This document shows positions 42,572 to 61,393 of a stretch of 64,000 nt of DNA, piece after piece. The number at the start of each line of letters is the position of its first letter. Within the stretch, counting starts at the first letter, position 1. The position numbers and the translations under genes were made by a program. Source of the DNA: a virus (Duplodnaviria > Caudoviricetes); the IMG/VR virus record IMGVR_UViG_3300027747_002427. One strand, 5' to 3'. Under the pieces are notes generated by a model. The model saw nothing but the letters and a program-made list of their open reading frames with translations. It ran no database searches and had not been told where the DNA came from.

Positions 42572-42584
42572 ATTTTAGTATATT

Positions 42585-44396
42585 TTAAACTAACATCAAC
42601 CTTGTTTTACCATTTATCTTTTCTAATTGAATGATGTTATCTAACCCGTTCTTGATAACGGATTTGTTGTGAGAGACTATATAAACACTTTCGTCATAGT
42701 CTTCAACTCTTGTTTTTAAAATTTCCAATATCTTTTCTGCTCCCTTCTCATCTACTGCAGAATCTAATAATTCATCATACATACTAAGAGAAAAGGATGT
42801 CCCGGTTTGTGTTCTTAATACATCTTGAAACATAAAGAGAATAGCTAAATCAATTCTTTTACGCTCTCCTCCACTAAAATTAAAATATGAACATTCTTTG
42901 CCTTGATCATTGTATATGGATTCTTCAAATATCTCATTAAATTCACACTTACAAGGAGCTTCTAGAATTTGTAAATAATGATTAAGTCTAGAATTTAAAA
43001 GATTTAACATCTTTTTAATAATGTATGTCTTTACACCTTCTTCCGAAACAACATATTTGGCTGTATCTAAAATGGTTAATTTCTTTTGTATTACTTGTAT
43101 TTGTTTTTCAGATTCTAAAATTTCAGTTTCTACATTATCTATAAGCTCCAATACACCATCTTTTTCATTTCTTAGAGTGGAGATTTCTTCAAGAATTTCT
43201 ACATTTCTTTTTTCTAATTGGCTCAATTCTTGTATAGCAAGAGCTAAATCACCCTTATCTTTATTGAGAGCCTTTATTTTTTGTTTAGTAGATGTAATAG
43301 CTGATTCTACTTTGGTTTCTTTTTTATTTAAATCTTCTAGAATCTTTCTCAAAGGTTCTTTTTTATCTTGAAGGGGTATTAATTTATCTTCTATTTCTTT
43401 TAAACAATCTTCTAAATTAGCATTTTCATCATACTTTCTTTTACAAGTAGGACAAGATGAATCTGTTTTTAATTTTTCTTTTTGCTTTTCTAAAGTTTTA
43501 GATTCATAATTAATTTGTAAAAGTTCTGTATTAGTATCAGAAGCAGACTTTTTAACCTTCTTTAAGCCCTCTTCAAGAGCTTCGAGATCAGATTCTTTGC
43601 TCTGTATCTCTTTGTCCAAATCATTAATTCTTCCATTCACTGAATCTTGATTCGATACATTTTTAATCTTTTGGTTATTAGCTTCTATTTTATCTTTTAA
43701 AGCTAATATTTTATTATTTTTAACTTCTTCATTTTTATCTGCTTGGCTCTTATATAGTTTTAAATTTCTTTGTTGATCTATAAATTTAGATCCAATTATA
43801 TCATTTTCTTTTTTAATATCATTATAATCTGATCTTGCCTGTAAAAGCATTTGACCAAAAATACCTAAATTTAAAATACCTTCTACAAATTTTCTTTTGT
43901 CTACCTTCTTTTGTGCCATGAAAGGTAAGGTATTATTAGCTGTCATAATGACCGCATTTTGAAATACCTCTTCATTAGCTCCTATTAATTCTTTGATATA
44001 TTCATTGGTCTCAGGCATTGTTGAGTGCGTCATGTCTACATCTTTTTGATCAACATGAGAAAATACACTCACTTTACTTGGTTCTAATGATCTCTTAATA
44101 GTATAAGGAATAGTTTGACTGCCATTAAAAATATTAAAACTTAAAATCACTTCACAACCTTTTTTAGTTTGATGGTGTATAATTTTATCTTTTTTAATAT
44201 CTCTCATGGTGACTCCAAATAAACACCAATATAAAGATTCAATCACAGTGCTTTTACCTACACCATTACGACCTCCCTTATCACGATTTTCTCCAGTAAT
44301 AAGGTTAACACCTTTTTGAAAAGATATCTCTAGAGGATCTTCTCCTACGGAAAGAAAATTTTGTATTTTGACACTATTAAAAATAACGCTTCTCAT
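42585..44396 (-). CDS. gp46: Recombination endonuclease ATPase subunit (gp46/Rad50-like)
   Basis: NFLS, NGVGKS Walker A, coiled coil with CPTC hook, FSGGE signature, YDELLDSAVD, VSH. Confidence 0.95.
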   Translation of the reverse strand: MRSVIFNSVKIQNFLSVGEDPLEISFQKGVNLITGENRDKGGRNGVGKSTVIESLYWCLFGVTMRDIKKDKIIHHQTKKGCEVILSFNIFNGSQTIPYTIKRSLEPSKVSVFSHVDQKDVDMTHSTMPETNEYIKELIGANEEVFQNAVIMTANNTLPFMAQKKVDKRKFVEGILNLGIFGQMLLQARSDYNDIKKENDIIGSKFIDQQRNLKLYKSQADKNEEVKNNKILALKDKIEANNQKIKNVSNQDSVNGRINDLDKEIQSKESDLEALEEGLKKVKKSASDTNTELLQINYESKTLEKQKEKLKTDSSCPTCKRKYDENANLEDCLKEIEDKLIPLQDKKEPLRKILEDLNKKETKVESAITSTKQKIKALNKDKGDLALAIQELSQLEKRNVEILEEISTLRNEKDGVLELIDNVETEILESEKQIQVIQKKLTILDTAKYVVSEEGVKTYIIKKMLNLLNSRLNHYLQILEAPCKCEFNEIFEESIYNDQGKECSYFNFSGGERKRIDLAILFMFQDVLRTQTGTSFSLSMYDELLDSAVDEKGAEKILEILKTRVEDYDESVYIVSHNKSVIKNGLDNIIQLEKINGKTRLMLV

Positions 44397-45304
44397 TTAT
44401 TTTCTAAAATCCAATTTTTAACATCTATGGTAGGTTTGTAATTTAAATATTTTTGAGCTTCTGTTATATCAGCTAATGTATGTTCTGCTTCACCAGCTCT
44501 TGCTGGAATATATTCAATATTATTATCGATAAGTCTAGCTATATCTTTTATTGATATATTTTGACCGGTTCCTATATTGTAAAGATTTCTACCTTCATGG
44601 GTTTCTGTCTCTGCTGCTAATATATTAACGTTTGCTATATCATATACATGAACAAAATCTCTACATTGTTCTCCATTTCCTACTATTGTTAAAGGTTCTT
44701 TATTAGCTTTCTGACGTAAAAATATTCCTATAACCGGAGCATAAGGACCTGTTCGAGGACTTCTTTCACCGAAAACATTAAAGTAACGAAATACAATTGT
44801 TTTCAATCCAAACATTTTTGTATACATTTCTACCATTTGTTCTCCGGAATATTTTGTAGCAGAATAAGGATTTAAACAATCTATTGGTTCGTTTTCATCT
44901 GTAGGTAATTTACATAAATTACCATAAACTGAGGATGTAGATGAATATATAAACTTCTCTATATTGTATAATCTACTATATTGAAGCATCTTAGTAGTGC
45001 CAACAGCATTTATTTCTACAGCTCTTATTGGATTAAGAATAGCTGGTCCTATTCTAGACTCAGCTGCAAGATGAAAAACATATTTTACATTTTCAAAAAT
45101 CTCTTTATGAGGCAAAGAATCATCATTGATATCAAATTTGTAATATGTTGCTAAATTATTAAAGTAAAATTTTTCATTAGACTCTGCTGAAAGATTGTCT
45201 ATAACAAGAACTTCATAACCCTTTTCCAGGAGTTTATCTACTAAATGACTTCCTATAAAGCCGCATCCTCCGGTTACTACTACTTTATTTTTTAAATTGC
45301 TCAT
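44393..45304 (-). CDS. NAD-dependent nucleotide-sugar epimerase/dehydratase (extended SDR)
   Basis: TGGCGFIGSH, HLAA, SSTSSVYG, YSATK, RYFNVFG, RDFVHV. Confidence 0.92.
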   Translation of the reverse strand: MSNLKNKVVVTGGCGFIGSHLVDKLLEKGYEVLVIDNLSAESNEKFYFNNLATYYKFDINDDSLPHKEIFENVKYVFHLAAESRIGPAILNPIRAVEINAVGTTKMLQYSRLYNIEKFIYSSTSSVYGNLCKLPTDENEPIDCLNPYSATKYSGEQMVEMYTKMFGLKTIVFRYFNVFGERSPRTGPYAPVIGIFLRQKANKEPLTIVGNGEQCRDFVHVYDIANVNILAAETETHEGRNLYNIGTGQNISIKDIARLIDNNIEYIPARAGEAEHTLADITEAQKYLNYKPTIDVKNWILENK

Positions 45305-46016
45305 GTATTAATGTTTTAAATTTAGTTGTACTCCATCCATGATCTCTGTTTATAAAAACTTCTGGTATGTTTAAATCTTTACCAGTATAATCTCTTTCTC
45401 TGTAATCATCACCCATGATTCTTATATCAAAAGAATTTTCTTTTAAAATATTATAAAGATCCTTTTCCGTTTTATAAACAATTATATCATTAATATACCT
45501 TATAGAAGACAAAATTTCAACTCTTTCTTCTACAGAATGAATAGGTTTAATTTTTTCTGAGCGATCTAATGAAGGATCTTCATGGAGTAAAATAGTGAGA
45601 TGATCACAATAATTCTTTGCTTCTTTAAATGCTTGAATATAACCAAAATGAATTACATCAAAAGACCCTATCAATACACCTTTCTTTTGATTTATAGGTT
45701 TAAAATATGAATCACTATGAATTGCTTTATCATCTATAAAAAAGTCATAAGGAGGTTTGCCTAATATTAATTCATGATATTTTAATCCCCAATAATTTAA
45801 TTGGTTTTTTGTAAGTTGGTAATACTTGTCTAACACTAAAGCTAGATTACCTTTAAATTCTGTGGTACCCCTTGCAGTATATATTTTTATATAATGACCC
45901 TTATCATAAAGATCATTAACTATTTTTATGCGTTCTAAAATAGGTTCTGCATTGATGTAGCCTTTACTTTTAGTAATACATAAAGTATTATCCAAATCAA
46001 AACAATATATTTCCAT
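45285..46016 (-). CDS. Fused HAD phosphatase + HIGH-type nucleotidyltransferase
   Basis: N-terminal FDLDNT, YTARG, GKP..D.FIDDK; C-terminal GSFDVIHFGY, ER.E.L, GDDY, GWSTT. Confidence 0.8.
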   Translation of the reverse strand: MEIYCFDLDNTLCITKSKGYINAEPILERIKIVNDLYDKGHYIKIYTARGTTEFKGNLALVLDKYYQLTKNQLNYWGLKYHELILGKPPYDFFIDDKAIHSDSYFKPINQKKGVLIGSFDVIHFGYIQAFKEAKNYCDHLTILLHEDPSLDRSEKIKPIHSVEERVEILSSIRYINDIIVYKTEKDLYNILKENSFDIRIMGDDYRERDYTGKDLNIPEVFINRDHGWSTTKFKTLIHEQFKK

Positions 46017-46017
46017 A

Positions 46018-47001
46018 TTAATTAGTAAAATTACCTAAGATCATAGACCCGTGATTATCTAATCCAAAATGCAATCTAGGGAATCCATTATCATTCATAA
46101 AAGCATCTAATTTGTCTTGATTATTAGGACAATATAATAATAAAAATCCACCACCACCAGCTCCAATTATTTTTCCACCTAGTACATTAAAGTATTTCTT
46201 GGTATGTTCATAAATGTTATCTACAATAGGTACAGAAATCTTATTAGATAATTGTTTTTTAAGTTGCCAATACTCATCCATTAAAGAACCATAGGATATA
46301 AAATCACCTTCTCTTAGATATGAGATTGTTTTTAATCCATGTTCTTTAACTATTTTTAAAATGTCTTCTGAATTACCTTTAAGTTTCTGTTGATCTGAAA
46401 GTACTTCTGATGCATCTCTCTTAATGTTTAAATAATAAACACACAAATGTGATACAAAATTATTAATCAAGCTTTGATTTAATTTTAAATCTTCTACATT
46501 TACTTTACCTTCTGTATCTATGTTAAGAATTTTTATTCCTCCATATGCTGCTATATATTGATCCTGTTTACCTACTGGTTCTTTGAGTCTATTAATTTCA
46601 ATATCACAAGCTTCTTCTGCTAGTATATGTGGTTCTCTGTTAAGTTTTTTATATTCCCTAATGCAATTCAAAGTGCCTACCAAGAAACTGCCAGAAGAAC
46701 CTAATCCTGTATTGGACGGTAAATCAGCACAGGAATTAATTTCACAGCTATTATTAATCTTATGAATTAACAATGCTTCCTTGGCTCTATGATTTTTTAA
46801 TTCTGAAACATCATTTACTATCTCTATTTGAGAGTAACGAAGCTTTAATTGTTTTTCAAAATGATCTGGTTTATATGTCAAATAGATATATTTGTCTATA
46901 GCCATAGATACCACCAATCCTCCGTGCTTAGAATAAAAGCTTGGTAAATCTGTACCACCACCACCTAATGTTATTCTTAAAGGAGTTCTACTAATAATCA
47001 T
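46018..47001 (-). CDS. hddA: D-glycero-D-manno-heptose-7-phosphate kinase (GHMP, HddA-like)
   Basis: TPLRITLGGGGTD, LPSNTGLGSSG, VGKQDQY, GGKIIGAGGGGF. Confidence 0.88.
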   Translation of the reverse strand: MIISRTPLRITLGGGGTDLPSFYSKHGGLVVSMAIDKYIYLTYKPDHFEKQLKLRYSQIEIVNDVSELKNHRAKEALLIHKINNSCEINSCADLPSNTGLGSSGSFLVGTLNCIREYKKLNREPHILAEEACDIEINRLKEPVGKQDQYIAAYGGIKILNIDTEGKVNVEDLKLNQSLINNFVSHLCVYYLNIKRDASEVLSDQQKLKGNSEDILKIVKEHGLKTISYLREGDFISYGSLMDEYWQLKKQLSNKISVPIVDNIYEHTKKYFNVLGGKIIGAGGGGFLLLYCPNNQDKLDAFMNDNGFPRLHFGLDNHGSMILGNFTN

Positions 47002-47702
47002 ATGTTCAAATTAGATGATTGTGCATCGTCATAGAACATTTTAACAGTTTCTAAAGAAAAGTCATCTAAATTTTTATCTTTTAATTTTAATTTAGGTAAT
47101 ATATCTGGGGTTACGGTAATAATATCACAACCGCATTTTTCTGCTTCGTATACATTATAAACACTACGAGTGCTAGCCCATAAAGTTTTAATAAACGAAT
47201 TATTATTTTTTAAAAACTTTGAAGTATTTAAAATTATATGAGTCGGATCTACACCTGTGTCCGAAATTCTTCCAGCAAATATAGAAAGTATAAGAGAATG
47301 TTTTGTGTCTATGGATTTATCTAAAATGTTTTTAATTTGTGCTTCTGTAAAAATAGCTGTAACATTAATGTTTATTCTTTTTTGATTCATTTTATAAATC
47401 AAATCAGCTGTAGATTTACCTTTAGTATTTGTTATCGGTACTTTAACAAATATATTATTTCCGTATTCTGAAATTTTTTGTATTTGATACTCCATTTCAT
47501 TTAATTCATCTGCAAAGATTTCAAATGAAAAGGGAAGATCTGTAATTTTATTAGTTATTTCTTTTATAAAAGGTACATATTCTGTAATTCCAGCCTTTTT
47601 CATAAGACTAGGATTAGTAGTAAACCCAGTTACCCTTTTATTATTTTCATAAATGTCAAAAATTTCTTTAACATTAGAAGTATCCGCATATATTTCTATC
47701 AT
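46998..47702 (-). CDS. tal: Transaldolase
   Basis: ADT, FTTNPSL, VKVP (Schiff-base Lys), INVT, SIFAGRI.D, LWASTR. Confidence 0.9.
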   Translation of the reverse strand: MIEIYADTSNVKEIFDIYENNKRVTGFTTNPSLMKKAGITEYVPFIKEITNKITDLPFSFEIFADELNEMEYQIQKISEYGNNIFVKVPITNTKGKSTADLIYKMNQKRININVTAIFTEAQIKNILDKSIDTKHSLILSIFAGRISDTGVDPTHIILNTSKFLKNNNSFIKTLWASTRSVYNVYEAEKCGCDIITVTPDILPKLKLKDKNLDDFSLETVKMFYDDAQSSNLNI

Positions 47703-48415
47703 ATTAAATTTTTATTGATAAAAAATAACCCGGCTTCTGCTACATGAGGAATTAAATGACCTATTTGTGAATTGGTATTACATGAAACTCCTCTTATAGA
47801 ACGAGTCAAAGGGTCTTCATTTTGCCAAGCTCTAAAGTCATTGAAATCTTCTAGAGCTAAATCTCTAAGATATTTAGTTTCTGCTGGATTATATACAAAA
47901 TTATAAGATGACAATTCATTAATCCAATATTCATCTGTTTGTTCATTAACATGATGATATCCACCTTGACCTGGAACTGCATGAGTGATTAATAGATATT
48001 TACATTGAGCAAAATTTTCAAAAAAGAAATGTCTATATTCTGCATTGACGTGTTCTACAAATTCAACAGACCAACATAAATCAAAATTTTCATTTAATTT
48101 CAAAGAACCCAAAGAATAATCATGAGCTATTATATCATCAGGATAAAATGAAAGCTTTTGAACCTTTTCAGATCCTTCTACACCTTTAATTTTTAAATTT
48201 AAAAAATCTTTAAAATATTTTAAATGAAATCCAAATCCACAACCAATATCTAAAACAGATTTAATATAATATTTGTTTACAATATATCTCCACATTTTAG
48301 GACATTCTGTGCCTGGATCTCCTAATAAATTACACCCACCTAAATGTCCATCCTTAAATGTAACATTATCTACACATTCTGGATTATTTTCTAAAGCTTT
48401 GTTTTGTAAATTCAT
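47699..48415 (-). CDS. Class I SAM-dependent methyltransferase
   Basis: VLDIGCGFG, GVEGS, DLCWSVEFVEH, PGQGGYHHVNE. Confidence 0.85.
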   Translation of the reverse strand: MNLQNKALENNPECVDNVTFKDGHLGGCNLLGDPGTECPKMWRYIVNKYYIKSVLDIGCGFGFHLKYFKDFLNLKIKGVEGSEKVQKLSFYPDDIIAHDYSLGSLKLNENFDLCWSVEFVEHVNAEYRHFFFENFAQCKYLLITHAVPGQGGYHHVNEQTDEYWINELSSYNFVYNPAETKYLRDLALEDFNDFRAWQNEDPLTRSIRGVSCNTNSQIGHLIPHVAEAGLFFINKNLI

Positions 48416-48996
48416 TTTTGTGTAAAATAATTAACTACTAAATGTAAAATAATACCCTGCCATTCTTCTGCATGAGCTGTAATTCTTAAATCATTTATTA
48501 CTGGTATTAATATACAAGCGTCTGATACTTTTTTCGAATAACCACCATCTCTACTAACAACAGACAGTATTTTGCTTTTAACTTTTTTAGCATATTTAAT
48601 AGCATTTACTAAATTTTTTGAAGTAGTATCAGTTCCTCCACCAACAGAAAATACAATTATACCATCTTTAGAAGATAGCTTGCTGCCTCTCAACCAATTA
48701 GCATAACTATCCTCCCAAGATTCGTCATTGATTCTTGCGGTTAATTCAGCTACATTATCTGTTACAGCGTAAGTTTCTATCCCAAGAATTTTTCTAAAAT
48801 CATTTACGGCATGACTAGCATTAGCAGCACTCCCTCCAACACCTAAAATAAACAATCTTCCTTTGCTTTTTTTAATTTTATCTATATTAACAATGAAATT
48901 AGATATAGAATCAATATTGATTTGATCTATTATAGATTTGGTTTCTATAAAATATTGATCTATATATTGATTTAATTTCATATTAAATGATTTCAA
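48412..48996 (-). CDS. gmhA: Phosphoheptose isomerase (GmhA-like SIS domain)
   Basis: GVGGSAANASH, ND..W, FSVGGG..S.NL, GG, AHAEEWQ..LH. Confidence 0.82.
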   Translation of the reverse strand: MKSFNMKLNQYIDQYFIETKSIIDQINIDSISNFIVNIDKIKKSKGRLFILGVGGSAANASHAVNDFRKILGIETYAVTDNVAELTARINDESWEDSYANWLRGSKLSSKDGIIVFSVGGGTDTTSKNLVNAIKYAKKVKSKILSVVSRDGGYSKKVSDACILIPVINDLRITAHAEEWQGIILHLVVNYFTQK

Positions 48997-49651
48997 AACA
49001 ACCTTGGCTGCAACCTAAATTTTGATAAATCAAAGGCTTGTAATCTAATCCGGTTTCTAATAAAAATTCAGCGAATACTTTGATTTCATGTAAACGAAAA
49101 TCTTCATAGTCGTTAATTTCATCAAATACAATAATAGTTCCTTTTTTTATTCTAGATCCTAGATATTTAAAAATTGTCTTAGCTGATGAATATAAATCAC
49201 TATCAACATGAAGAAATGCTACATCTCCCTCAAATTTCTTGACAAAAAGAGGAAGTGTATCTTCAAAATATCCTTTTATAAGCTTTACATTATCTGGCCA
49301 AGGTTTCCAATTTACTGGAAGATCACTATTAAACATGGAATGATTATCACCCACAATATAACCAGGAGGTATTTGCCCATTAAGATTAAAAGCTCCTTTA
49401 GGATTGTTAGCATCCCAATGCTCTGGCAATCCTTCAAAACAATCAAATCCGTAAATCTCTTTCGTGGTTTTTCTAGAAAATTGTTCTATACTTCTTCCGG
49501 TGAAGACTCCAAATTCTAACCATAATCCTTCTATTTTAACTTCGTCTGCGCATGCTAAATGGAATGTTTCGTGAAAATCCCAATTTGCTATTATTCTTGC
49601 TTCGGTTTTTAATCTGTGATCTATTTCGTCTATTTTTTGATCTAGTGTCAT
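48983..49651 (-). CDS. TylF/MycF-like O-methyltransferase
   Basis: LEFGV..G, GFDCFEGLPE, GYFEDTLP, LHVDSDLYSS, IIVFDE. Confidence 0.85.
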   Translation of the reverse strand: MTLDQKIDEIDHRLKTEARIIANWDFHETFHLACADEVKIEGLWLEFGVFTGRSIEQFSRKTTKEIYGFDCFEGLPEHWDANNPKGAFNLNGQIPPGYIVGDNHSMFNSDLPVNWKPWPDNVKLIKGYFEDTLPLFVKKFEGDVAFLHVDSDLYSSAKTIFKYLGSRIKKGTIIVFDEINDYEDFRLHEIKVFAEFLLETGLDYKPLIYQNLGCSQGCFEII

Positions 49652-49658
49652 ATTATAT

Positions 49659-49686
49659 ATAATAGGACAAATTGTTAAAAAATCAA
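49659..49686 (-). promoter_or_regulatory. Sigma70-like promoter TTGATT-N16-TATTAT
   Basis: Internal island promoter 7 nt before ATG 49651, driving the methyltransferase/heptose sub-operon. Confidence 0.6.
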
Positions 49687-50774
49687 TAGTTTAAATTATC
49701 ATATAAAGAGATTATATTCTTTTCTATCACTCGATAATCGTATTTTTCCCAATATCTGTTTAAGGTTTTTTCTGATTTTTCTTTATAATAATTTTTATTA
49801 TCCCGAAGAGAAATCATTTCTGATACATATTCTTCAAAAGAATAAGCCATTTTACCACAGCTTTCTATTTGTTCTACATGACCCATATTCAAAGCTGGGT
49901 GACTAATAACTGGTTTACCATGATACATTGCTTCTATTATAGAAGCCGAACATACTTCTCCGTCTGATCTAGCATGAGCATATACATCTATGCCAGCTAA
50001 AAAATCATGTATATCTTCTACAGAACTTGTAAATTCCAAGAAATAAACATTTTTTAATCCCAATTCTTTAACAGTATTGATATGTTCTTGACATCCTCCT
50101 AAAATAACAAAACAAGTTTTATCGTTTTGTACTTGCTTGTAAGCTGCTAAAGAATTAGGAGAAAATATATCACTTCTATTGGCTTGGTGAAAACCATATA
50201 TAAAAATATCTTCTTCTATATTTAAAAGTTTTCTTAGATTAGATGGTTTTTTTTCTGGTACTTTAACTATAGAAGGAATTATTTCTGCCTTTGAGATATT
50301 ACCACCATTACTAGCCCATTTTTCTGCTTGCCATTTACATAAAAGAATTGCCTTTTTAATATTGGGTTTGTCTTCACCGTTAAAACTATGAATACTATCA
50401 ATTATAGGACAATTATTAATAATGTTGAAAGGATATTCTGGATAACCTCCTCTCGCGGTTTGTATAAAATCATAATTAGTTTCTTTAAATAAATCCCAAA
50501 AATCCGTTCCTATCCATTTATAAGGTTCGACATTACCTATTTTATGATCTACATGAATCTTAATAGTATTAATACCTTGGTCTTCTATTAATTGTTTTCT
50601 TACTGGGTCATTATCCGGATGTACAAAACTAGAATTTAAAAAGGGTGCTGCATTAGTATAAAAATAATCTATCTGATATCTATCTTTAGGTAATAAACAT
50701 GCCAAAGTTTGAAGATATTTTTCAGTTCCTCCAGAAGCTAATCCGGCAAATTTAATAAATGCTGCTTTTTTCAT
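49683..50774 (-). CDS. GT4-like (GT-B) glycosyltransferase
   Basis: GLASGGTEK, DVYAHARSDGEVCSASIIEAM..GKPVIS. Confidence 0.85.
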   Translation of the reverse strand: MKKAAFIKFAGLASGGTEKYLQTLACLLPKDRYQIDYFYTNAAPFLNSSFVHPDNDPVRKQLIEDQGINTIKIHVDHKIGNVEPYKWIGTDFWDLFKETNYDFIQTARGGYPEYPFNIINNCPIIDSIHSFNGEDKPNIKKAILLCKWQAEKWASNGGNISKAEIIPSIVKVPEKKPSNLRKLLNIEEDIFIYGFHQANRSDIFSPNSLAAYKQVQNDKTCFVILGGCQEHINTVKELGLKNVYFLEFTSSVEDIHDFLAGIDVYAHARSDGEVCSASIIEAMYHGKPVISHPALNMGHVEQIESCGKMAYSFEEYVSEMISLRDNKNYYKEKSEKTLNRYWEKYDYRVIEKNIISLYDNLNY

Positions 50775-51481
50775 TATCTTTGACCTAAATCTAGTGTTGA
50801 TTTATACAATCCGTTTCTTGATCCTTGAGAAGCTATTGAAGGATACCACCAATATGTTTTGGCATTAAATTTATATAATTGATAAGCTATTTCCCAATCA
50901 GAAACTAATTGAAAAGGAATAGCTGATGAATATATTTTAGATGCTATTTGAGGTTTTAAAAGATAAGCTTCTGCGCAATTAGTAGCCGGGTGATTCATTA
51001 AATAAGAATTTTTACTAATCTTTTGGCTATTAAAGATTTTTTCATTTTGAAAATTTATTCCACACCCTTCACCGAGGAATATAGCATCCCAATCTGTCGG
51101 AGTTTCTGAAATATACTTTTTATATAAGTCATTAAAATTATTATTAAATAAAACATCGTCTTCTAAAATTAATCCAAAATTAGGACATTCCAAAGAAACC
51201 TTTTCTATTGCTTTTAAATGTTTTATTGTACAAGATATTTCTGGTAAATTTAAGGTCCTAAATATATGAATATTAGAATCCCATAAAGGGTCTATTTTTT
51301 GTTTAAATTTAATTTCATCTGCTAGATAATATTGTTTTAATATATCTGTAGATAAATCTTCTTGATCATATTCTTTTATAAATTCATAAGGAATTTTAGA
51401 ATTTTCTAAAAAGGAAATGACTTTAGAATATCTATCTGATAATTTTGTATAATGAACTATATAAATTTTATCTGGTTTCAT
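50774..51481 (-). CDS. GT25-like glycosyltransferase
   Basis: IYIVH...DR, EISCTIKH, LILEDD, AEAYL, QGS. Confidence 0.8.
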   Translation of the reverse strand: MKPDKIYIVHYTKLSDRYSKVISFLENSKIPYEFIKEYDQEDLSTDILKQYYLADEIKFKQKIDPLWDSNIHIFRTLNLPEISCTIKHLKAIEKVSLECPNFGLILEDDVLFNNNFNDLYKKYISETPTDWDAIFLGEGCGINFQNEKIFNSQKISKNSYLMNHPATNCAEAYLLKPQIASKIYSSAIPFQLVSDWEIAYQLYKFNAKTYWWYPSIASQGSRNGLYKSTLDLGQR

Positions 51482-52374
51482 TTTAATATTTTCTCTTTAA
51501 AGAATTTTAACACATTTTCTGGTAAAATAAAGTCTGGAAATTTATTATCTATAAACCAAGGTTCATTTAATATTTCTTTATACTTTTCTTCGTTATTATC
51601 TATTTCTAAAATTTTATCTATAAATTCTTCTTCTGAAGAATAATCATGTAAACTTAAAAATGATTTTTTATTAAAATCTTCTCCTACTCTTTCATTGCCC
51701 CAATATAAAGGTATTGTATTAACAAACATTGGATGTATTATCTTTTCTGTTGTATATCCGTCACTGGATGTATTTTCAAAACTAATATTAAATTTAAAAG
51801 GCTTTAATGCTAAAATTTTCCAAATCTGGTCTCCACGACCTTGTATTCTTTGATTTATATTATTATATAAACCACCCATACAGTGAACTTCTTTTTTAGA
51901 AAGTAATTTAGGCACAAAACTTACTCTTTTTCCTTTAGGTTGATTAGCTATAAAACTGCAGAAATGATGTTTGTTTACTTTAACATCATTTTTATTTAAA
52001 AGAAATTGTGGGTCGTGCAAATATGATTGATCCCTATCATCATCATGAGGTCTATTAAACCAATTTATATGCATTCCCCACAAAGGAAATCGGTAATTTC
52101 TATCGTCTTCTATATGTTCAAAAGTAAATGCATAATGACATTGATTAAAATCTGGTTTACTACATTCCCCTGTATAATATATTTTTTTACATCTTTTATT
52201 ATTATATTTAAAATGTTGTGGATTACCTGTATAATCATAAGAATAAAACAAAAGATCTGGGTCTTCGGAATCTAATATAACTTTATATTCTTTAGATAAT
52301 AAATTATAAAAATAATTGTCATTATCTTTAAAATTAGGCCAAAAGTCTACAAAACAAATTTTTAAAGTATCCAT
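51478..52374 (-). CDS. GT10 (alpha-1,3-fucosyltransferase family) glycosyltransferase
   Basis: FCSFIAN, KFNISFEN...GYTTEKI...TIPLYWG is the GT10 alpha-1,3-motif. Confidence 0.88.
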   Translation of the reverse strand: MDTLKICFVDFWPNFKDNDNYFYNLLSKEYKVILDSEDPDLLFYSYDYTGNPQHFKYNNKRCKKIYYTGECSKPDFNQCHYAFTFEHIEDDRNYRFPLWGMHINWFNRPHDDDRDQSYLHDPQFLLNKNDVKVNKHHFCSFIANQPKGKRVSFVPKLLSKKEVHCMGGLYNNINQRIQGRGDQIWKILALKPFKFNISFENTSSDGYTTEKIIHPMFVNTIPLYWGNERVGEDFNKKSFLSLHDYSSEEEFIDKILEIDNNEEKYKEILNEPWFIDNKFPDFILPENVLKFFKEKILK

Positions 52375-53126
52375 TTTTTAACATTATTCCAATCTTGACC
52401 GCCGGCTAAATGTCTTATGATTACATTTTCTCTAGATACTTTATTAATATTAAATTGGCATGAGCTTTCTCCTTCCCATTCTGTTACATTAAACCCTGTG
52501 GGAAATATAGAAACGTGTTCATTTAATTCTTTTAAAGAATAAACTATATCTTCATTTAATTCACTATGAAAACCATTATTAGGATATTCCCAAAAAGATT
52601 TATCTGAATGTCTTTTAATACCAGCTAAGCTATACCAACTTGCTTGTTCTCTAAATTCATGCCAAAAACTAGAAGCGGTTTGAAATCTTTCATGAATTGA
52701 AATCTTGTTATTTAATTTATTGAATCTTTCTTCTGATAAAATATTGTTAATTAAATTTCGCGACCACTCATTAACTTTAATACTATACCAGCCCATACAA
52801 TGTGTGTTGCCGGAATCTATACAATAACCAAAAGATTTACTTGGCTCTAATGAATGTTCTGTATTAACAAAATACATATCAGCATCTATATGAGCTAATA
52901 TATCTCCGTCCTCAAGTTTGTTACTCTCTAATAAATCTTTGACTATAGTAAATTTCCACCATGTAGGATTGCCTCTATATAAGTCTAAAGGATTTTCATT
53001 GCCAATGACTACGTATTTAAATCCATGTTTATCACAATACTCTTTATTTCTTGGTGAAATAATTTCATCAAAAATCTGCTGTCTGTGATCATTATATTTT
53101 GCTATAACAAAAAGTACTTTTTTCAT
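52362..53126 (-). CDS. GT34-like (Mnn10/GMA12) glycosyltransferase
   Basis: YCDKHGF, TWWKF, HIDAD, REQA, IRHLAG. Confidence 0.65.
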   Translation of the reverse strand: MKKVLFVIAKYNDHRQQIFDEIISPRNKEYCDKHGFKYVVIGNENPLDLYRGNPTWWKFTIVKDLLESNKLEDGDILAHIDADMYFVNTEHSLEPSKSFGYCIDSGNTHCMGWYSIKVNEWSRNLINNILSEERFNKLNNKISIHERFQTASSFWHEFREQASWYSLAGIKRHSDKSFWEYPNNGFHSELNEDIVYSLKELNEHVSIFPTGFNVTEWEGESSCQFNINKVSRENVIIRHLAGGQDWNNVKKWIL

Positions 53127-54007
53127 TTTAATGAATCTAATATATTATCACACATTCCTTCTAATGTAAAGTATTTTGGATATATTTTTTTTATTTTAGA
53201 AAGCATATATTCTTGTCTTTTATTTGATATAGATTTTAATATATTATCTAGATTGTCAATATCTTTAAAATCTACTAAAATAGCTATATCATCCCAATTT
53301 ACTTTATTAGCAAATGGTATAAAGGGTTTGTTATAATATATATAAACTGGAATAGATCCCAATTGCATTGCTTCATATAATCGAAAGCTTGTTGCACCAT
53401 ATCCACGCGGACAAAGAGTAAATTTACTGCGAGAAGTTGTTTCTATAAAAAGATTCTGTCTTTCTGTTTTAACATCTGGAGACCAGTGTTTGGGTTTTAA
53501 TACATATTCTTCTTTGTTTATCAAAACCTCTAACATTTTCATTCTAATATTATGAGATACAGAAGCCCAAGTATTAGGAATATTTTGTGTGACACTTCCT
53601 ACGAAACTACAAAATATATCTTTGGGTAAGTCTTTAATATCTTGAATGGAACTGCATATTAAAGGTATAGGAATTGTGTTGGGTACATTACCTCCAGCTG
53701 AAAAATGTATTGTATTGAGAGGGAACTCTTGGTAAGGCCCATCATCATGTTGAGATACTGTAAAATACTTTTTACTTTTATCTAGGCTGTTTAGATCTTG
53801 TTGTAAATCATGTAGCAGATGAGTTCCACCTAAATATAATTCAGTCCAAAAAACGGGAATATATTCATATCCCGTTGTTTTAAATTTATCTATATTTTTT
53901 ACATAATAATCATAAAAATATTCTTCTAAATATTTTCCTTGATGATAAAAGGGATATGGATTAGTCTGTGTAACTATTCTATATTTTTCAAACTTTTCTA
54001 GAATCAT
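53123..54007 (-). CDS. GT47 exostosin-like glycosyltransferase
   Basis: SKFTLCPRGYGATSFRLYEAMQLGSIPV, PF...NW. Confidence 0.85.
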   Translation of the reverse strand: MILEKFEKYRIVTQTNPYPFYHQGKYLEEYFYDYYVKNIDKFKTTGYEYIPVFWTELYLGGTHLLHDLQQDLNSLDKSKKYFTVSQHDDGPYQEFPLNTIHFSAGGNVPNTIPIPLICSSIQDIKDLPKDIFCSFVGSVTQNIPNTWASVSHNIRMKMLEVLINKEEYVLKPKHWSPDVKTERQNLFIETTSRSKFTLCPRGYGATSFRLYEAMQLGSIPVYIYYNKPFIPFANKVNWDDIAILVDFKDIDNLDNILKSISNKRQEYMLSKIKKIYPKYFTLEGMCDNILDSLK

Positions 54008-54680
54008 ATTTTTCTTTTACTTTATCCAATAATTTAATTTTATTACTAAATGGTGTAGTCCAATTAGCATGATGTATTGTTATATTTTCTGGTATATCAA
54101 AATCTTCTACGCCCTGCCAGGTACCAGATGAATTTGAAGGATTGGTTCTTTTCAAAGCCAATTCACCATAAGTCCAATAATCTTTGGATAACATCTTCCA
54201 TTTAAATGATATTTTTTCTAAATTATTAAAATTGCTTATAATATAATTAAAACAAACTTGTTCTTCCGGAAATTTCTCTAAATTACCTTCAACAGTTTTT
54301 AAAAAAGCTCTTGTTTTAGGGGTAGATCTCATTATAAAAAACCCAGTATTAACTCCACCTCCATAATCATTTTGAAAAGCAGCATCATAATCACCTAGTT
54401 GTTGTATTACGTCTTTTGAAAAAGGTTTAAAAAATTGAATATCTGGATCTGAAAACATAAAGCATTCTCCGTCTTTTGTTTCATAAGCTGCATCTATAAA
54501 ACATTGAACTTTATATTTCATAGTATCTCTCCACCCATCGCTTTGAAATTCAGAACTAGGACATACTTGTGGTTTAAATTTAACTACAAGTTCTATATCA
54601 GTGTCAAAGGGAAAGCTTTTTATAAAGTAATCTTTAAACATATCATAATGAGATTCTGTAAATACGGTATAAAGTTTCAT
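53988..54680 (-). CDS. Nucleotide-diphospho-sugar transferase (GT77-like)
   Basis: FSDPDI, QND, NTGFFIMR, EQVCFN, HHANW...KI. Confidence 0.75.
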   Translation of the reverse strand: MKLYTVFTESHYDMFKDYFIKSFPFDTDIELVVKFKPQVCPSSEFQSDGWRDTMKYKVQCFIDAAYETKDGECFMFSDPDIQFFKPFSKDVIQQLGDYDAAFQNDYGGGVNTGFFIMRSTPKTRAFLKTVEGNLEKFPEEQVCFNYIISNFNNLEKISFKWKMLSKDYWTYGELALKRTNPSNSSGTWQGVEDFDIPENITIHHANWTTPFSNKIKLLDKVKEKYDSRKV

Positions 54681-54746
54681 TGTTTGTAATTACCTTTATC
54701 GTCTCTCAAGTCTACAAGCTCACTTTTATTTTTTCGTAAAAACCAT

Positions 54747-55517
54747 TTAAAGACATTTTAGATATTTTGCTTCTTGTTCTAATTCATCAGGTAAAGAATA
54801 TAAAAATTGTCCGTATGGCAACCTTTTAATAAGGTAAGAATATATAAATTCTTTCCAGTTTTTATGATAAGGGGATTCTTCCCAAAGTTTGCTATTATAG
54901 ATAGCTTCTGGAGAAGATTCATTCCAATTTAAATCATGTTTTTCATGACAAAGAAAAACACTTTTATTACCTAAAAAAGAATTACTTCTATTATACATTT
55001 CTAAAGCAAATGCAACATCCCATAAATGTTCAGCGTATATATAATCTTTAAAATATTGTTTATTGTTTAACCACCAATTCTTTTTTACAGCCCAAGCATC
55101 AAATCCGGCTATTTCTATTCTAAAGGGTATGATATTATCTAAACCTGTTATAGGATAACAATCATGTCTTGAAAATGAATATGTATCATATTCTCCTTTT
55201 ATTAATAATTTAATAATATTTTCTGTTAATAAAACATCACTATTTAAAAACAAAAAATAATCACAATCGGTAGTTGATAATATATCAAAAAAATCTTTAG
55301 CAATGGGTTTTTCTGATTTAGAATTTGTAATATCTTTTGCTTTTCTTTTTAAAAAAGGAAGATGATTGAATCCTAAAGCATAATTTTTTTCGTTTTCATA
55401 TGTAATATTATATAAAGATATATTGTTATGTTTTGAAGCGAGCTTATTTAAGACTTCTATACAAAAATCTTGTCTTTTATAATCTTTAAAAACATTAATT
55501 CCTATTGAAATTTTCAT
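54747..55517 (-). CDS. GT-A fold glycosyltransferase-like protein
   Basis: FLFLNSDV, FSRHD, GFDAW, WD; start MKISIG at 55517 (ATGA overlap). Confidence 0.6.
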   Translation of the reverse strand: MKISIGINVFKDYKRQDFCIEVLNKLASKHNNISLYNITYENEKNYALGFNHLPFLKRKAKDITNSKSEKPIAKDFFDILSTTDCDYFLFLNSDVLLTENIIKLLIKGEYDTYSFSRHDCYPITGLDNIIPFRIEIAGFDAWAVKKNWWLNNKQYFKDYIYAEHLWDVAFALEMYNRSNSFLGNKSVFLCHEKHDLNWNESSPEAIYNSKLWEESPYHKNWKEFIYSYLIKRLPYGQFLYSLPDELEQEAKYLKCL

Positions 55518-56299
55518 GGTCTTATACCTTTTAAATATTCTACAACCTCTTCCGGATGTTTGCAATTAATACTATTAATTTTTACACCATGCTTATTTGT
55601 AAAATAATTTATAGTATCTTGAATTACATCAGCTCTAGACCCATCCGGCCTATCGGCTTGAAGCCTACTTGTTGCAACTGGATTGTTTTCTATATATTCA
55701 TCTGAATTAGTTATATCTGCAAAATACCAAAAAGGAGCTACATTAGGATTTAAAATAGATTGTCTAAATGCCATGTCTGCATCAAATAAATCTCTCATTT
55801 TTCCATCATAAAGTCCACATTTTATAAAACAAGATTTATGGTGATATGTAAATTCATTACACATATTTTGATAAAAAGACACCCCAAGTGTTTCACTATA
55901 ATTGACTTGAAGAGTTGGAGTTCTAGCACCTGGGTGACCAGCTTGATCACTCATACTAACATATGAAAAATAATTCAATCCACTAATTTTAGATGTTTCT
56001 ATATATTTTTTAAAAATATCTACATTCTTAATAATCATATCATCCTCTATAAGGAATATATGTTCACAATCTTTATTCATTAGAAATGTTATACAATCAT
56101 TTCTACAAACTGAAGGATATCTATTTTTATTATGTTGAATCCAATCACAATTATAAGAATTTTTATATTTGTCTCCTCCGTTAACAACTACAATTTCATC
56201 AATTATATTAGCATCTTTTAAACTATCAAAAAGAGTTTTAAAATAATTTTCTGAATTGTAGGTAGTAATACCTACACCTATTTTTTCATTATTAAACAT
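55514..56299 (-). CDS. GT2-like glycosyltransferase
   Basis: KIGVGITTYN, RNDCI, HIFLIEDD. Confidence 0.8.
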   Translation of the reverse strand: MFNNEKIGVGITTYNSENYFKTLFDSLKDANIIDEIVVVNGGDKYKNSYNCDWIQHNKNRYPSVCRNDCITFLMNKDCEHIFLIEDDMIIKNVDIFKKYIETSKISGLNYFSYVSMSDQAGHPGARTPTLQVNYSETLGVSFYQNMCNEFTYHHKSCFIKCGLYDGKMRDLFDADMAFRQSILNPNVAPFWYFADITNSDEYIENNPVATSRLQADRPDGSRADVIQDTINYFTNKHGVKINSINCKHPEEVVEYLKGIRP

Positions 56300-57122
56300 G
56301 ATTTTTATATATTTGCTTTAAACTCTCTATTACTTCTTTTTCTGAGTAATTTTTTTCAATAGGTCCATATCCTTGTATTACACTAAAATTATTTTTTTGA
56401 ATAAAAATATCTAGAGCCTTTTTAAAATTCTCTTGAAAATTAGATTCATTTCTAATCTTGCTTTGTTGATGATCAGGTACGATATCTTTTAAATATTTTT
56501 TAGAATCTTTAATATCTGCAAACCATCTAAATGGTGGGTGATACCCTTTTTTTATTATTTGATATGTATGGTCAACATGCTCTAAAGCATTATAAAAATT
56601 CTCGTCCATTAAACCACAATCTTTTAATACATCTATATGATAATAACTAAGGGCTCCTAGTATATTAGGATACAAGTCTATTTCTGTATGACCATAATTG
56701 ACTGTTTTTCTAATAGTAGGATTTCCATAAGGATCTATGTTATGATTGCCATGTAGACCAAAATTAAAATGTTTTATACCAGTAGCTTTGGAAGTATTAA
56801 TATAAGCTTCAAATATATTATTATCTACAACTTCAATATCATCTTCCATTAAAAATATATGTTCACAACCAATTTTTATTAAATGTTTTAAAGCTAAATT
56901 CTTTGCAACGGCAACACCTTCTTTATTTTTAGTCTTTATATAATGAACATTATTTTCTTCACCTTGCTCTATAAGATTTCTTACATGCTCTTCTCCATCA
57001 TCTACTATTACAAAACTAATATTGTGATTATCTTTAACTGATTTATAACTCTTTTGAAAGAATTCTGGTCTATCGCAGGTTATTAATCCAACACCAATCT
57101 TACACGATATTGCTTTTTGCAT
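56292..57122 (-). CDS. GT2-like glycosyltransferase
   Basis: KIGVGLITCDR, VDDG, GVAVAKN, HIFLMEDD, MDENF...EHVD. Confidence 0.85.
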   Translation of the reverse strand: MQKAISCKIGVGLITCDRPEFFQKSYKSVKDNHNISFVIVDDGEEHVRNLIEQGEENNVHYIKTKNKEGVAVAKNLALKHLIKIGCEHIFLMEDDIEVVDNNIFEAYINTSKATGIKHFNFGLHGNHNIDPYGNPTIRKTVNYGHTEIDLYPNILGALSYYHIDVLKDCGLMDENFYNALEHVDHTYQIIKKGYHPPFRWFADIKDSKKYLKDIVPDHQQSKIRNESNFQENFKKALDIFIQKNNFSVIQGYGPIEKNYSEKEVIESLKQIYKNHV

Positions 57123-57867
57123 AATTCTTTTGAATGATTTCCATGGAATTCAATAATTGTTCCTGGGTAACTCCTGCTGGTTCATTTTGCCCGGGAATAT
57201 ATTGATTATTATACATGAAATATGCATAGGAAATCTGTACTCCTTTATCTAAATCTGGTATATCTTTGTAATTTATTTTCTGAATCATGGAATTAGATTT
57301 AGATAAACCATCCTTTATAGAAGGATGAAAATGATTAGGAGGATATATACCCTTCTTTCTCATCTTTAAAACATAATCTAACACATCTAAATGTTTAGAA
57401 TTATAAAATCTTTCATCAAAATAGCCGTTATTCTTCACAACCCCTGTGTATAAGAATATAAAATCACTATTTAATTCTGGTGTAAGATTTAAAGTTACAC
57501 CGGCTTCGTCATCTTCAAGAGGTATTGATTTATCACCTGGTCCTAAAATAAACCAAGTACCAAATACTTCTGCGGTTTTAATAGTCTTTTCAAATACATT
57601 TGGATTTTCTATAACTTGATTAGAGTTAATTAAGAATAAAAATTTATAATCCTTAATGCGTAATTGTGATAATGCCCAATTACGTAGAGTAGCAAATGAT
57701 ACTTCTCTATCATAAGATCTAGAAATGGGGGTTTTAGAGGTGCGATTTTTCGTATTAGATACCACTACTACATTGTTTTTTAATTCTTCTGGTATAGATG
57801 AATAGCATCTATCAAGATCTTCTGAGGTGTAAACGTCTAATATTCCTATGCCTATTTTGTCATTCAT
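57100..57867 (-). CDS. Degenerate GT2 paralog
   Basis: KIGIGI, RNWAL, FDERF, KKG.YPP align to the neighbours, but EDD is replaced by NSN. Confidence 0.6.
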   Translation of the reverse strand: MNDKIGIGILDVYTSEDLDRCYSSIPEELKNNVVVVSNTKNRTSKTPISRSYDREVSFATLRNWALSQLRIKDYKFLFLINSNQVIENPNVFEKTIKTAEVFGTWFILGPGDKSIPLEDDEAGVTLNLTPELNSDFIFLYTGVVKNNGYFDERFYNSKHLDVLDYVLKMRKKGIYPPNHFHPSIKDGLSKSNSMIQKINYKDIPDLDKGVQISYAYFMYNNQYIPGQNEPAGVTQEQLLNSMEIIQKNYAKSNIV

Positions 57868-60998: not shown

Positions 60999-61393
60999 GT
61001 GGTTTCCAACTTATTAATCTCTATAATATTTTTGAGATCATAAGTCATACTCCTAAAGATAGATTCAACCTTTTCTAAATATTCAATAACTAATTTTGCA
61101 TTAGCCATCTCTTCGTCTATTTTTTGAATAGCTTCGGACTCTTCTATCTTTCTATCTAAAGCAGTTTTCGGTATACCCGGAGGAATACCTTCTCTTTCAT
61201 AAGATGCATAAACAGCAGCTCTTATAGTCTTTCTTTTCTTTTCTAAAGAATAAAGATATCTTTTTTGTTCTATAAGACGTGCTACCCATTTATGTTTAAT
61301 AGCTGGTAATCTTAATTGTTTTTCTAAAAGATTTAGTTCGTCTACTTTAGTATCTTCTTCTAATTCTTTTTTGATTTCTTCTATTATAACCAT
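60995..61393 (-). CDS. uvsY: Recombination mediator UvsY-like
   Basis: EEDTKVDELNL..KQL.LPAIKHKW, coiled coil, YDLKNIIE; adjacent to uvsW. Confidence 0.75.
   Translation of the reverse strand: MVIIEEIKKELEEDTKVDELNLLEKQLRLPAIKHKWVARLIEQKRYLYSLEKKRKTIRAAVYASYEREGIPPGIPKTALDRKIEESEAIQKIDEEMANAKLVIEYLEKVESIFRSMTYDLKNIIEINKLETT

Follow-up and report, generated by a model that had tools for sequence, protein, structure and literature searches.

What is a large set of sugar genes doing between two genes of DNA recombination, and what do its products glycosylate? This question is raised by a 64,000-nucleotide stretch of viral DNA (IMG/VR record IMGVR_UViG_3300027747_002427; Duplodnaviria, Caudoviricetes), here called the window. 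Positions 44393 to 57867 of the window, between the phage genes gp46 and gp47, are occupied by 17 open reading frames (ORFs), all on the minus strand and numbered from i01 (next to gp46) to i17 (next to gp47). The comparisons described below leave us in little doubt that this interval is a hypervariable, recombination-shuffled glycan island. The fuller account that we propose is of a co-transcribed cytoplasmic glycan locus, most likely decorating the virion proteins of the phage, and we give this account nearly an even chance of being correct.

A preliminary description of this DNA, made from the letters alone, had reported that gp47 and gp46 are split by 17 sugar genes. The ORF count was exact, and both flanks were confirmed by Pfam and tblastn, the gp46 ORF matching annotated gp46/SbcC of T4-like phages and cyanophages and the gp47 ORF matching annotated gp47/SbcD of T4-like phages. 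Identity to these counterparts was just 27 to 31%. The window also carries a T4-like core (gp43, gp32, UvsX, gp41, gp55, gp46, gp47, UvsY, UvsW, tail sheath, tail tube, and terminase), and the order uvsY-UvsW-gp55-gp47, upstream of the island on the same strand, matches that of cyanophage S-SSM7. The DNA polymerase gp43 is at most 30% identical to that of any cultured phage, and a megablast search of cultured phages with an 18-kb query returned zero matches. These values place the phage in a deep-branching, uncultured T4-like lineage without a close isolate. The public runs that contain this sequence are freshwater metagenomes.

That genes 46 and 47 normally adjoin, as had been taken for established, proved to be only approximately right. 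In T4 (NC_000866), the order is 55 - a-gt.5..2 - mobB - a-gt - 47.1 - 47 - 46.2 - 46.1 - 46, so that 46.1 and 46.2 lie between the two genes, and in S-SSM7 (uvsY - uvsW - ... - gp55 - gp47 - 95-aa ORF - gp46), the place is taken by an ORF of 95 amino acids (aa), with no sugar cluster there. T4 resembles the window in operon order and strand, in having small ORFs between 47 and 46, in the 4-bp overlaps at 47/46.2 and 46.1/46, and in the presence of a glycosyltransferase (GT) beside 47. It differs in that the insert is 0.45 kb long and consists of two tiny ORFs, whereas a-gt lies upstream of 47, is a GT-B enzyme, and acts on hydroxymethylcytosine DNA with host UDP-glucose. Since both T4 and S-SSM7 have extra small ORFs here, the gp47-gp46 interval is a small plastic site even in classical genomes.

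A gp47 query retrieved 80 IMG/VR loci, in which the distance from gp47 to gp46 was taken from tblastn and from longer fetched stretches. The two genes overlapped by 4 bp (e.g., L037 and L040), stood approximately 0.8 kb apart (e.g., L030), or were separated by 3.9 to 14 kb; the intervals of approximately 0.8 kb carry a single i16-like glycosyltransferase. Among these phages, the interval thus forms a natural series of zero to 18 genes. The gp47 tree resolved four well-supported clades, A to D. Intervals measure 3.9 to 14 kb in clade A, the clade of the window, with one long-branch exception at 44 bp, and 6.9 to 12.4 kb in clade B; clade D has one glycosyltransferase and clade C has none. Because a glycosyltransferase adjoins gp47 in three of the four clades, this gene is old and common to them, and the large islands are expansions from it rather than the result of one insertion.

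Seventeen relatives with complete intervals contributed 175 island proteins, which clustered into 69 families; 43 of these were found in a single locus, and only 2 reached half or more of the loci. The anchor family, of GT-A type, was present in 17 of 17. Locus L081, with 93% identity in gp47 and 88% in gp46, has 2 of 12 island families in common with the window, yet L085, with 58% identity in gp47, has 8 of 14, in the same order. Island content therefore does not track the phylogeny of the flanks; the two are uncoupled. These counts, in which even the closest distinct relative shares so few families, bear out the earlier claim of a hypervariable locus, which had been set against identical gene content across the clade.

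The nucleotide alignment of the window with L081 (approximately 84% identity) runs from position 41825 to 44397, where it stops at the gp46 start codon, and again from 56756 to 59636. Between these aligned flanks, 12.4 kb of the window and 10.5 kb of L081 are unrelated. At the protein level, i17 is 85% identical to its L081 counterpart, whereas i16 is approximately 39% identical, which places the likely proximal breakpoint at about the i17/i16 boundary. A breakpoint inside i16, after its donor-binding half, was considered and rejected, since the identity of i16 to its counterpart is approximately 39% throughout. The pattern looks like cassette replacement between conserved flanks. The suggestion that conserved flanks allow cassette exchange thus stands, with refinements. 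L081 supports it with a wholly different cassette and clean breakpoints. The conserved flank, however, takes in i17 and part of i16, and a heptose module related to that of the window occurs elsewhere without gp46, as described below.

The L081 cassette encodes GT7C, GT11, GT10, GT6 (E value of 7e-44), and GT77-type glycosyltransferases, an FkbM methyltransferase, a hexapeptide acyltransferase, a DegT aminotransferase fragment, and two short-chain dehydrogenase/reductase (SDR) enzymes. It lies at positions 3588 to 12017 of L081 (contig G002), and its DegT aminotransferase seems truncated at 195 aa. The GT6/GT11/GT10/GT7C set builds ABH/Lewis blood-group-like glycans in bacteria and animals. 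Another relative, L082, carries GT2, GT8, GT32, and GT47 enzymes together with FkbM and other methyltransferases. The variant cassettes are thus again sets of soluble glycosyltransferases and methyltransferases.

Turnover was also seen between strains. The sister strain L087 (contig G007) is 98 to 100% identical to the window over 19 kb, except at positions 53000 to 55000, which contain i12 and i13 and are 82 to 89% identical. L087 has 580 extra bases, with a 220-aa GT25-like ORF, between i14 and i13. The 66-bp gap of the window at this place keeps the first approximately 33 and the last approximately 45 bases of that gene and is therefore a deletion scar. Contigs from an independent run (X4) cover 43800 to 54528 and 54507 to 57167 without one difference from the window, and a 2022 run (X6) carries a variant that is approximately 98% identical. 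Two further signals in X4 were set aside. Its apparent joints, with 21 to 23 matching letters on one side in AT-rich sequence, were treated as chance, and an approximately twofold higher summed depth over 58.3 to 61 kb was not usable, as depth is one figure per contig.

Homing endonucleases near the island could raise local recombination. A gene for a SegE-like GIY-YIG homing endonuclease (61664-62098, plus strand) is located 3.8 kb from the island, just on the other side of the divergent promoter region; it is kept in many relatives, and T4 comparably has mobB beside a-gt. In L024 (6623-9352), the UvsW-like helicase gene is seemingly split into two ORFs, of 388 and 290 aa, that are separated by a third of 289 aa, which may reflect insertion of an intron or a homing element.

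The island genes were assigned with Pfam, NCBIfam, PHROGs, predicted folds, and Atlas language-model feature matches (Table 1). They comprise 5 sugar-nucleotide enzymes, 2 methyltransferases, and 10 glycosyltransferase-type proteins, in agreement with the preliminary reading of the island as sugar genes. The true start of i14 is probably the ATG at 55517, which adds another ATGA overlap, with i15; the Atlas copy of the i14 protein begins at residue 17.

Table 1. Genes and other features of the island and its surroundings in the window
Feature	Positions	Strand	Evidence and remarks
gp46, Rad50/SbcC-like recombination nuclease subunit	42585-44396	-	Pfam AAA_23 (1.1e-10), SMC_N; conserved distal flank
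i01, SDR sugar-nucleotide epimerase/dehydratase (GalE, HldD, or 4,6-dehydratase-like)	44393-45304	-	Pfam Epimerase (1.4e-56), GDP_Man_Dehyd (1.2e-54); NCBIfam galE and heptose_epim, below cutoffs
i02, HAD-type sugar phosphatase (residues 5-104) fused to HIGH-type nucleotidyltransferase (113-235)	45285-46016	-	NCBIfam EcbF-BcbF capsule phosphatase (7e-12), rfaE_dom_II (1.3e-14), g3p_cytidyltrns (1e-15); Pfam CTP_transf_like
i03, HddA-like D-glycero-D-manno-heptose 7-phosphate kinase (GHMP family)	46018-47001	-	NCBIfam GlMnHpPKinHddA (3.1e-37)
i04, transaldolase	46998-47702	-	NCBIfam transald_staph (3.1e-81; 272.6 bits versus cutoff of 282); Pfam TAL_FSA
i05, S-adenosylmethionine-dependent methyltransferase	47699-48415	-	Pfam Methyltransf_11, Methyltransf_25
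i06, GmhA-like sedoheptulose 7-phosphate isomerase, SIS domain	48412-48996	-	NCBIfam gmhA (2.1e-12); Pfam SIS_2
i07, TylF-type sugar O-methyltransferase	48983-49651	-	Pfam TylF (3.9e-12), Methyltransf_24
i08, GT-B glycosyltransferase (Glycos_transf_1 / GT4-type)	49683-50774	-	Pfam Glyco_trans_1_4 (2.2e-9)
i09, GT25 glycosyltransferase	50774-51481	-	Pfam Glyco_transf_25 (8.5e-14)
i10, GT10 alpha-1,3-fucosyltransferase-like	51478-52374	-	Pfam FucT_N (1.8e-20), Glyco_transf_10 (7.9e-16)
i11, probable GT34/GT77-like glycosyltransferase, lead only	52362-53126	-	Atlas features (0.97) to viral Glyco_transf_34 / Nucleotid_trans clusters; no Pfam or PHROG match
i12, GT47 exostosin-like glycosyltransferase	53123-54007	-	Pfam Exostosin_GT47 (5.4e-18); in strain-level divergent patch (82-88% nucleotide identity to L087)
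i13, Nucleotid_trans (GT77-like) glycosyltransferase	53988-54680	-	Pfam PF03407 (1.5e-9); in strain-level divergent patch
Deletion scar of 18th gene	54681-54746	-	66-bp gap; intact gene in sister strain L087
i14, GT2/GT7C-like glycosyltransferase, lead only	54747-55517	-	Atlas features to GT2 and Glyco_transf_7C clusters
i15, GT-A glycosyltransferase, paralogue of i16	55514-56299	-	PHROG 2456 (1.8e-16); 30% identity to i16
i16, GT-A glycosyltransferase, EDD motif	56292-57122	-	Pfam Glycos_transf_2; PHROG 2456 (2.4e-24)
i17, GT-A-fold protein, S-N-Q in place of DXD	57100-57867	-	Start overlaps gp47 stop (ATGA)
gp47, Mre11/SbcD-like nuclease subunit	57864-58916	-	Pfam Metallophos; conserved proximal flank
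gp55, late sigma factor	58916-59608	-	Pfam Sigma70_r2 (weak)
UvsW-like helicase	59580-60998	-	PHROG DNA helicase
uvsY	60995-61393	-	PHROG UvsY
Best sigma-70-like promoter match	61406-61433	-	TTGAAA, 16-nt spacer, TG-TATAAT; 11/12 consensus; consensus match only

The island had also been described as welded in by ATGA overlaps, more AT-rich than the core, and free of att repeats, transposase, and integrase. An ATGA stop/start overlap is indeed present at both ends (44396-44393 and 57867-57864). With the i14 start corrected to 55517, 4-bp overlaps occur at 8 of 18 island junctions versus 2 of 45 elsewhere in the window (Fisher P = 3.6e-4), overlaps of any length occur at 15 of 18 versus 11 of 45 (P = 3e-5), and the island has two intergenic gaps only, of 31 and 66 bp. 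Overlaps are therefore generic to the block and not special to its ends. The ATGA overlap of the gp47 stop with the next start is ancestral, as it also occurs in clade C, with nothing between gp47 and gp46. The two remaining statements held. GC content is 27.8% in the island and 32.7% in the rest of the window, and at third codon positions (GC3), it is 15.2% versus 21.0% elsewhere (Mann-Whitney P = 8e-5). No integrase or transposase domain was found among the 17 ORFs, and the search for bounding att or inverted repeats found only short AT-rich repeat matches at chance level.

Promoter- and terminator-like matches within the island did not exceed shuffled expectation, and the best promoter match (61433-61406) lies upstream of uvsY in the sole sizeable intergenic region upstream of the block. 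The packing by overlaps and the lack of internal signals above chance suggest one long, coupled transcript. Judged from this anatomy, the island is probably read with the early/middle uvsY-uvsW-gp55-gp47-gp46 transcript and translationally coupled. As a separate observation, the T4 late-promoter core TATAAATA is strongly avoided, with 4 occurrences on both strands of the window versus 17.8 expected from shuffles; in 100 of 100 shuffles, there were at least as many copies of TATAAATA as in the window.

The gp46-proximal third of the island is predicted to encode a complete route to nucleotide-activated heptose. The i04 transaldolase, predicted to supply sedoheptulose 7-phosphate, would be followed by the i06 isomerase, the i03 kinase, the i02 phosphatase/nucleotidyltransferase, and the i01 SDR enzyme; the i05 and i07 methyltransferase genes are interleaved among the genes of this route. 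All of these enzymes score under the NCBIfam curated cutoffs, which limits the assignment of the product to a nucleotide-activated heptose. The isomerase, GHMP-type kinase, phosphatase, nucleotidyltransferase, and SDR steps of the bacterial routes to GDP-D-glycero-alpha-D-manno-heptose (GmhA, HddA, GmhB, HddC) and ADP-heptose (GmhA, HldE, GmhB, HldD) are all found in the island. Unlike these routes, the island is a hybrid, in which an HddA-type kinase is combined with a transferase of HldE-domain-II/cytidylyltransferase type fused to a capsule-type HAD phosphatase. It also brings its own transaldolase. A guanylyltransferase of the HddC type (NTP_transferase fold) was not matched, the i02 transferase being of the CTP_transf_like/RfaE-domain-II type.

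The bacterial genomes searched contained no close relatives of HddA. The nearest relatives (55 to 88% identity), which carry an HddA-type kinase name from JGI, are common in metagenomes on AT-rich, phage-like contigs. Two such contigs, L091 (38.8 kb) and L092 (305 kb), both AT-rich and phage-like, were inspected. The order TylF - SIS - ... - transaldolase - HddA - phosphatase/transferase - SDR recurs in both, at 48 to 69% protein identity, and in one of them, GT25, GT10, and GT4 genes precede the heptose module. Neither has gp46 after the module, which in L092 adjoins a ClpB-like AAA gene. Flank homology is therefore not the sole route of exchange. Additional FkbM methyltransferases and a fusion of SDR and methyltransferase, 869 aa long, accompany the modules of L091 and L092.

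These comparisons bear on whether the island has a function at all. The site could be permissive for insertion, with the sugar genes as neutral passengers or headful-packaging filler. Stuffer DNA has been raised as an explanation of cyanophage lipopolysaccharide (LPS) clusters (PMC3037559), and the low GC3 relative to core genes and the decay of one gene to a 66-bp scar would fit it. However, the 17 ORFs are without exception intact, with tight coupling, and the pathway that they include is both complete and coherent. Each variant cassette is again a set of glycosyltransferases and methyltransferases rather than of random genes, an identical island is present in contigs of an independent run, and the gene order of the heptose module is kept in other phages at 50 to 69% protein identity. 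We consider neutral cargo the least credible of the explanations weighed here.

At the other end of the island, i15, i16, and i17 are paralogous GT-A proteins adjoining gp47. The models of i16 (predicted local distance difference test [pLDDT] score of 92) and i17 (pLDDT of 84) both have GT-A folds. While i15 and i16 keep an E-D-D (DXD) motif (alignment A1), i17 has a near-invariant S-N-Q there (alignment A2) and so may be a noncatalytic partner or a metal-independent enzyme. It is the gene most tightly conserved with gp47, kept with the gp47 flank throughout clade A. Homologues of i16 were found in 26 relatives, adjoining gp47 in three of the four clades. As gp47 identity falls from 79% to 42%, that of the anchor glycosyltransferase falls from 65% to 26%, so that the two mostly codiverge, whereas the distal genes do not. 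A search of 50,697 cultured-phage records with i16 matched 371 records, 335 of them of mycobacteriophages. These include the commonest match, a 480-aa Cheoctovirus glycosyltransferase, to whose N-terminal GT-A domain i16 is 26% identical (E value of 6e-13). Below threshold, i16 matched Pfam TAGT (6.7e-4) and a PHROG for beta-glucosyl-hydroxymethylcytosine-alpha-glucosyltransferase (1.8e-4). When i16 and i17 were compared by fold with PDB and with viral models, the matches were enzymes such as B4GALNT1, GnT-I, ppGalNAc-T, TarS/TarP, WrtF, and megavirus glycosyltransferases.

The subthreshold matches of i16 to families that glycosylate DNA bases raise a second explanation, namely, that the conserved glycosyltransferase by gp47 adds sugar to a modified DNA base, which might be a 7-deazaguanine derivative, in the way that T4 a-gt acts on hydroxymethylcytosine. 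The rest of the island would extend the base sugar or would merely have accumulated at a permissive site. This explanation suits an island lying among replication and recombination genes, the T4 precedent of a DNA alpha-glucosyltransferase adjoining gene 47, and the single glycosyltransferase between gp47 and gp46 in clade D, which is what a DNA-modifying enzyme would look like; QueE-like, QueD, and FolE2 genes are also nearby. It is less easily reconciled with the size of the island, since ten glycosyltransferases, two methyltransferases, and a heptose route far exceed any known DNA sugar; to our knowledge, these have two or three residues at most. Moreover, i16 is closer to the mycobacteriophage glycosyltransferases than to DNA glycosyltransferases, and the GT-A models of i16 and i17 contrast with the GT-B fold of T4 a-gt and b-gt. 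The thymidylate-synthase-type hydroxymethylase (PF00303) is absent from the complete relatives G005, G006, and G010, with control genomes positive. A Tet/JBP profile found no match in these three relatives and none in the control genomes either, and it is therefore uninformative. Pfam TGT was not detected in the complete relatives, which does not count against deazaguanine DNA, as phage DpdA is often too divergent for the model. Overall, we regard glycosylation of DNA as improbable.

Genes for 7-deazaguanine synthesis are scattered in the replication operon of the window (41801-42571, 40451-41767, 33566-34108, 28297-29205, and 36397-37266, with the neighbors named here). A QueE-like radical SAM (S-adenosylmethionine) gene directly follows gp46; next comes a lone glycosyltransferase of 438 aa, which matches PHROG 7162 and has no Pfam match. 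QueD (PTPS) and FolE2 come further on, and a 289-aa ORF without a Pfam match stands between thyX and gp43.

The nature of the glycosyltransferases points in another direction, the host envelope. GT25, GT10, and GT4 in the window and GT6, GT11, and GT8 in its relatives are classic families of lipooligosaccharide (LOS) and O-antigen synthesis, and heptose is an LPS and capsule sugar. The soluble glycosyltransferases could act, on the cytoplasmic side of the membrane, on host lipid A-core or another lipid-linked glycan, which the host MsbA/Lpt or Wzx systems would export; the altered cell surface would exclude competing phages or stop progeny from readsorbing to debris. Such a role is the one usually put forward for LPS-type genes of cyanomyophages and pelagimyophages. 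In pelagimyophages, these lie mostly in the tail-fiber host-recognition cluster, between VrlC and gp14, and modification of the host O chain was suggested (PMC7029224). Large LPS-type clusters near hli03 or phoH in P-SSM2, S-SSM7, and S-SM2 are of open function, described as "functional or stuffer DNA" (PMC3037559). An early/middle operon position would suit an early surface change, and strong diversification is expected under phage-phage competition. The gene content fits less well, since none of approximately 20 island variants has an initiating polyprenyl-phosphate transferase, flippase, polymerase, or ligase. By hydropathy scan, there is no membrane segment in any of the 17 island proteins and no multispanning membrane protein in any variant island examined; the integral-membrane flippase, bactoprenol transferase, and serotype-specific transferase of GtrABC/Oac-type seroconversion are thus not matched here. 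The proximal glycosyltransferases are also kept with the phage core down to a gp47 identity of 42%, in phages with probably different hosts, which is unexpected for a host-specific core glycan. Replacement of LPS within a lytic cycle would presumably be slow in slow-growing lake bacteria, and LPS is not a given in the host. We think it unlikely, though well worth considering, that the host envelope is the target.

The conservation of the proximal enzymes instead supports an acceptor intrinsic to the phage, since these enzymes mostly track gp47 across phages whose hosts probably differ, whereas the distal genes have been reshuffled. Under the account that we prefer, a vertically inherited proximal module would consist of i17 (which lacks the DXD motif), i16, and then i15 or a two-domain enzyme of approximately 490 aa. 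The distal part would be repeatedly replaced by homologous and illegitimate recombination among co-infecting phages; here, it would contribute its own activated heptose, two methyltransferases, and seven more glycosyltransferases. Since the proteins have no membrane segments and the genes run stop-on-start and are probably co-transcribed, we propose synthesis in the cytoplasm, the product being a methylated, heptose-containing oligosaccharide. The conserved proximal enzymes would recognize the acceptor, and the swappable enzymes would add a strain-specific outer part. The acceptor, the most conjectural element of the account, would be one or more virion proteins of the phage itself, which would thereby carry a variable coat of glycans. 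There is precedent in the Cheoctovirus group, where glycans on capsid and tail-tube proteins are reported to be the work of phage enzymes (PMC12363180 and PMC11256854, citing Freeman et al. 2023). We tentatively assign the acceptor role to a virion or other phage protein, at somewhat less than an even chance.

Several points weigh against this assignment. The analysis identified no acceptor, the island lies among DNA-metabolism genes and not virion genes, and co-transcription is deduced from gene anatomy alone. GT25, GT10, GT11, and GT6, together with heptose, are typical of bacterial lipooligosaccharide and O-antigen, and because LOS-type enzymes likewise have no membrane segments, the absence of such segments does not separate the virion from LOS as a target. 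The likeness of i16 to the Cheoctovirus enzyme amounts to 26% identity in a generic GT-A nucleotide-binding domain only; the C-terminal domain of that 480-aa enzyme had no match to i16, and the second Cheoctovirus glycosyltransferase (207 aa) had none to i17, the sole window protein compared with it. The fold matches of i16 and i17 are to generic GT-A enzymes only and do not identify the acceptor. Lastly, a proline/threonine-rich protein of the window is missing from the complete anchor-carrying relatives G005, G006, and G010. This 135-aa protein (4204-4611, minus strand), which has a mucin-like Pro/Thr/Ser-rich C-terminal tail and adjoins phoH and the tail sheath gene, was considered as a conserved acceptor and rejected, having been found only in the two nearest relatives searched. 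As a further observation on virion proteins, the tail sheath (4703-7114, plus strand) is 803 aa long versus a PHROG profile of approximately 500 positions, which implies a large insertion, and has a Ser/Thr-rich stretch around residues 145 to 175.

A related possibility is that the interval acts as a viral "serotype" locus like the O-antigen loci of bacteria. The i17/i16 pair would prime a phage-intrinsic acceptor, and the exchanged cassettes would add strain-specific outer glycans, heptose-rich and blood-group-like ones included. We consider this conceivable but well short of even. Its variant in which the intrinsic acceptor is the 7-deazaguanine-modified DNA itself seems very improbable to us.

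The closest known parallels are the LPS clusters of aquatic T4-like phages, with which this phage shares a T4-like backbone, an AT-rich genome, and a multi-kilobase cluster of sugar-nucleotide and glycosyltransferase genes that varies among relatives. Unlike those clusters, the island splits gp47 from gp46 in the replication/recombination operon, has a conserved glycosyltransferase anchor, and is fully stop-start coupled; the phage is also very distant from those groups, with at most approximately 31% identity in gp43, gp46, and gp47. The island is of a broadly known kind, the glycan islands of aquatic T4-like phages, and is distinct in its address, its anchor, its extreme coupling, and its natural series of zero to 18 genes; we found no published description of a sugar-gene cluster between gp47 and gp46. 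In virion glycosylation by mycobacteriophages (Che8, Corndog, and Myrna; Freeman et al. 2023, as summarized in PMC12363180 and PMC11256854), soluble phage glycosyltransferases and a methyltransferase act in the cytoplasm, as we propose here. The mycobacteriophage loci have two to four genes, with no sugar-nucleotide pathway, versus 17 genes here; they also differ in genome position and host phylum, and virion glycans have been reported there, whereas genes alone are known here.

Giant viruses have clade-specific clusters with sugar-nucleotide synthesis and many glycosyltransferases and methyltransferases, which serve the fibril glycans of Megavirinae and the capsid glycans of chloroviruses. 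Like them, the island and its variants use GT families best known from eukaryotes (GT10, GT47, and GT77), and the viral folds closest to i16 include those of megavirus glycosyltransferases. Giant viruses differ in infecting eukaryotes, in having demonstrably glycosylated virion proteins, and in showing no synteny with the island.

Sugar clusters of aquatic T4-like phages have been known since 2005 to 2010. What this locus adds is a clean natural experiment, with a fixed address between essential conserved genes, a conserved acceptor-proximal pair, swapped cassettes, and relatives with one glycosyltransferase or none. This natural series makes the question of the acceptor directly testable. A hybrid heptose pathway also comes with the locus, as do many small soluble glycosyltransferases whose families are best known from eukaryotes. 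If the acceptor is indeed on the virion, the range of phages with glycosylated particles would widen from mycobacteriophages to the abundant myoviruses of the environment, and glycan variation would join tail fibers as an axis of phage diversification. If the locus works in the manner of a serotype, T4-like lake phages would wear glycan coats and swap them.

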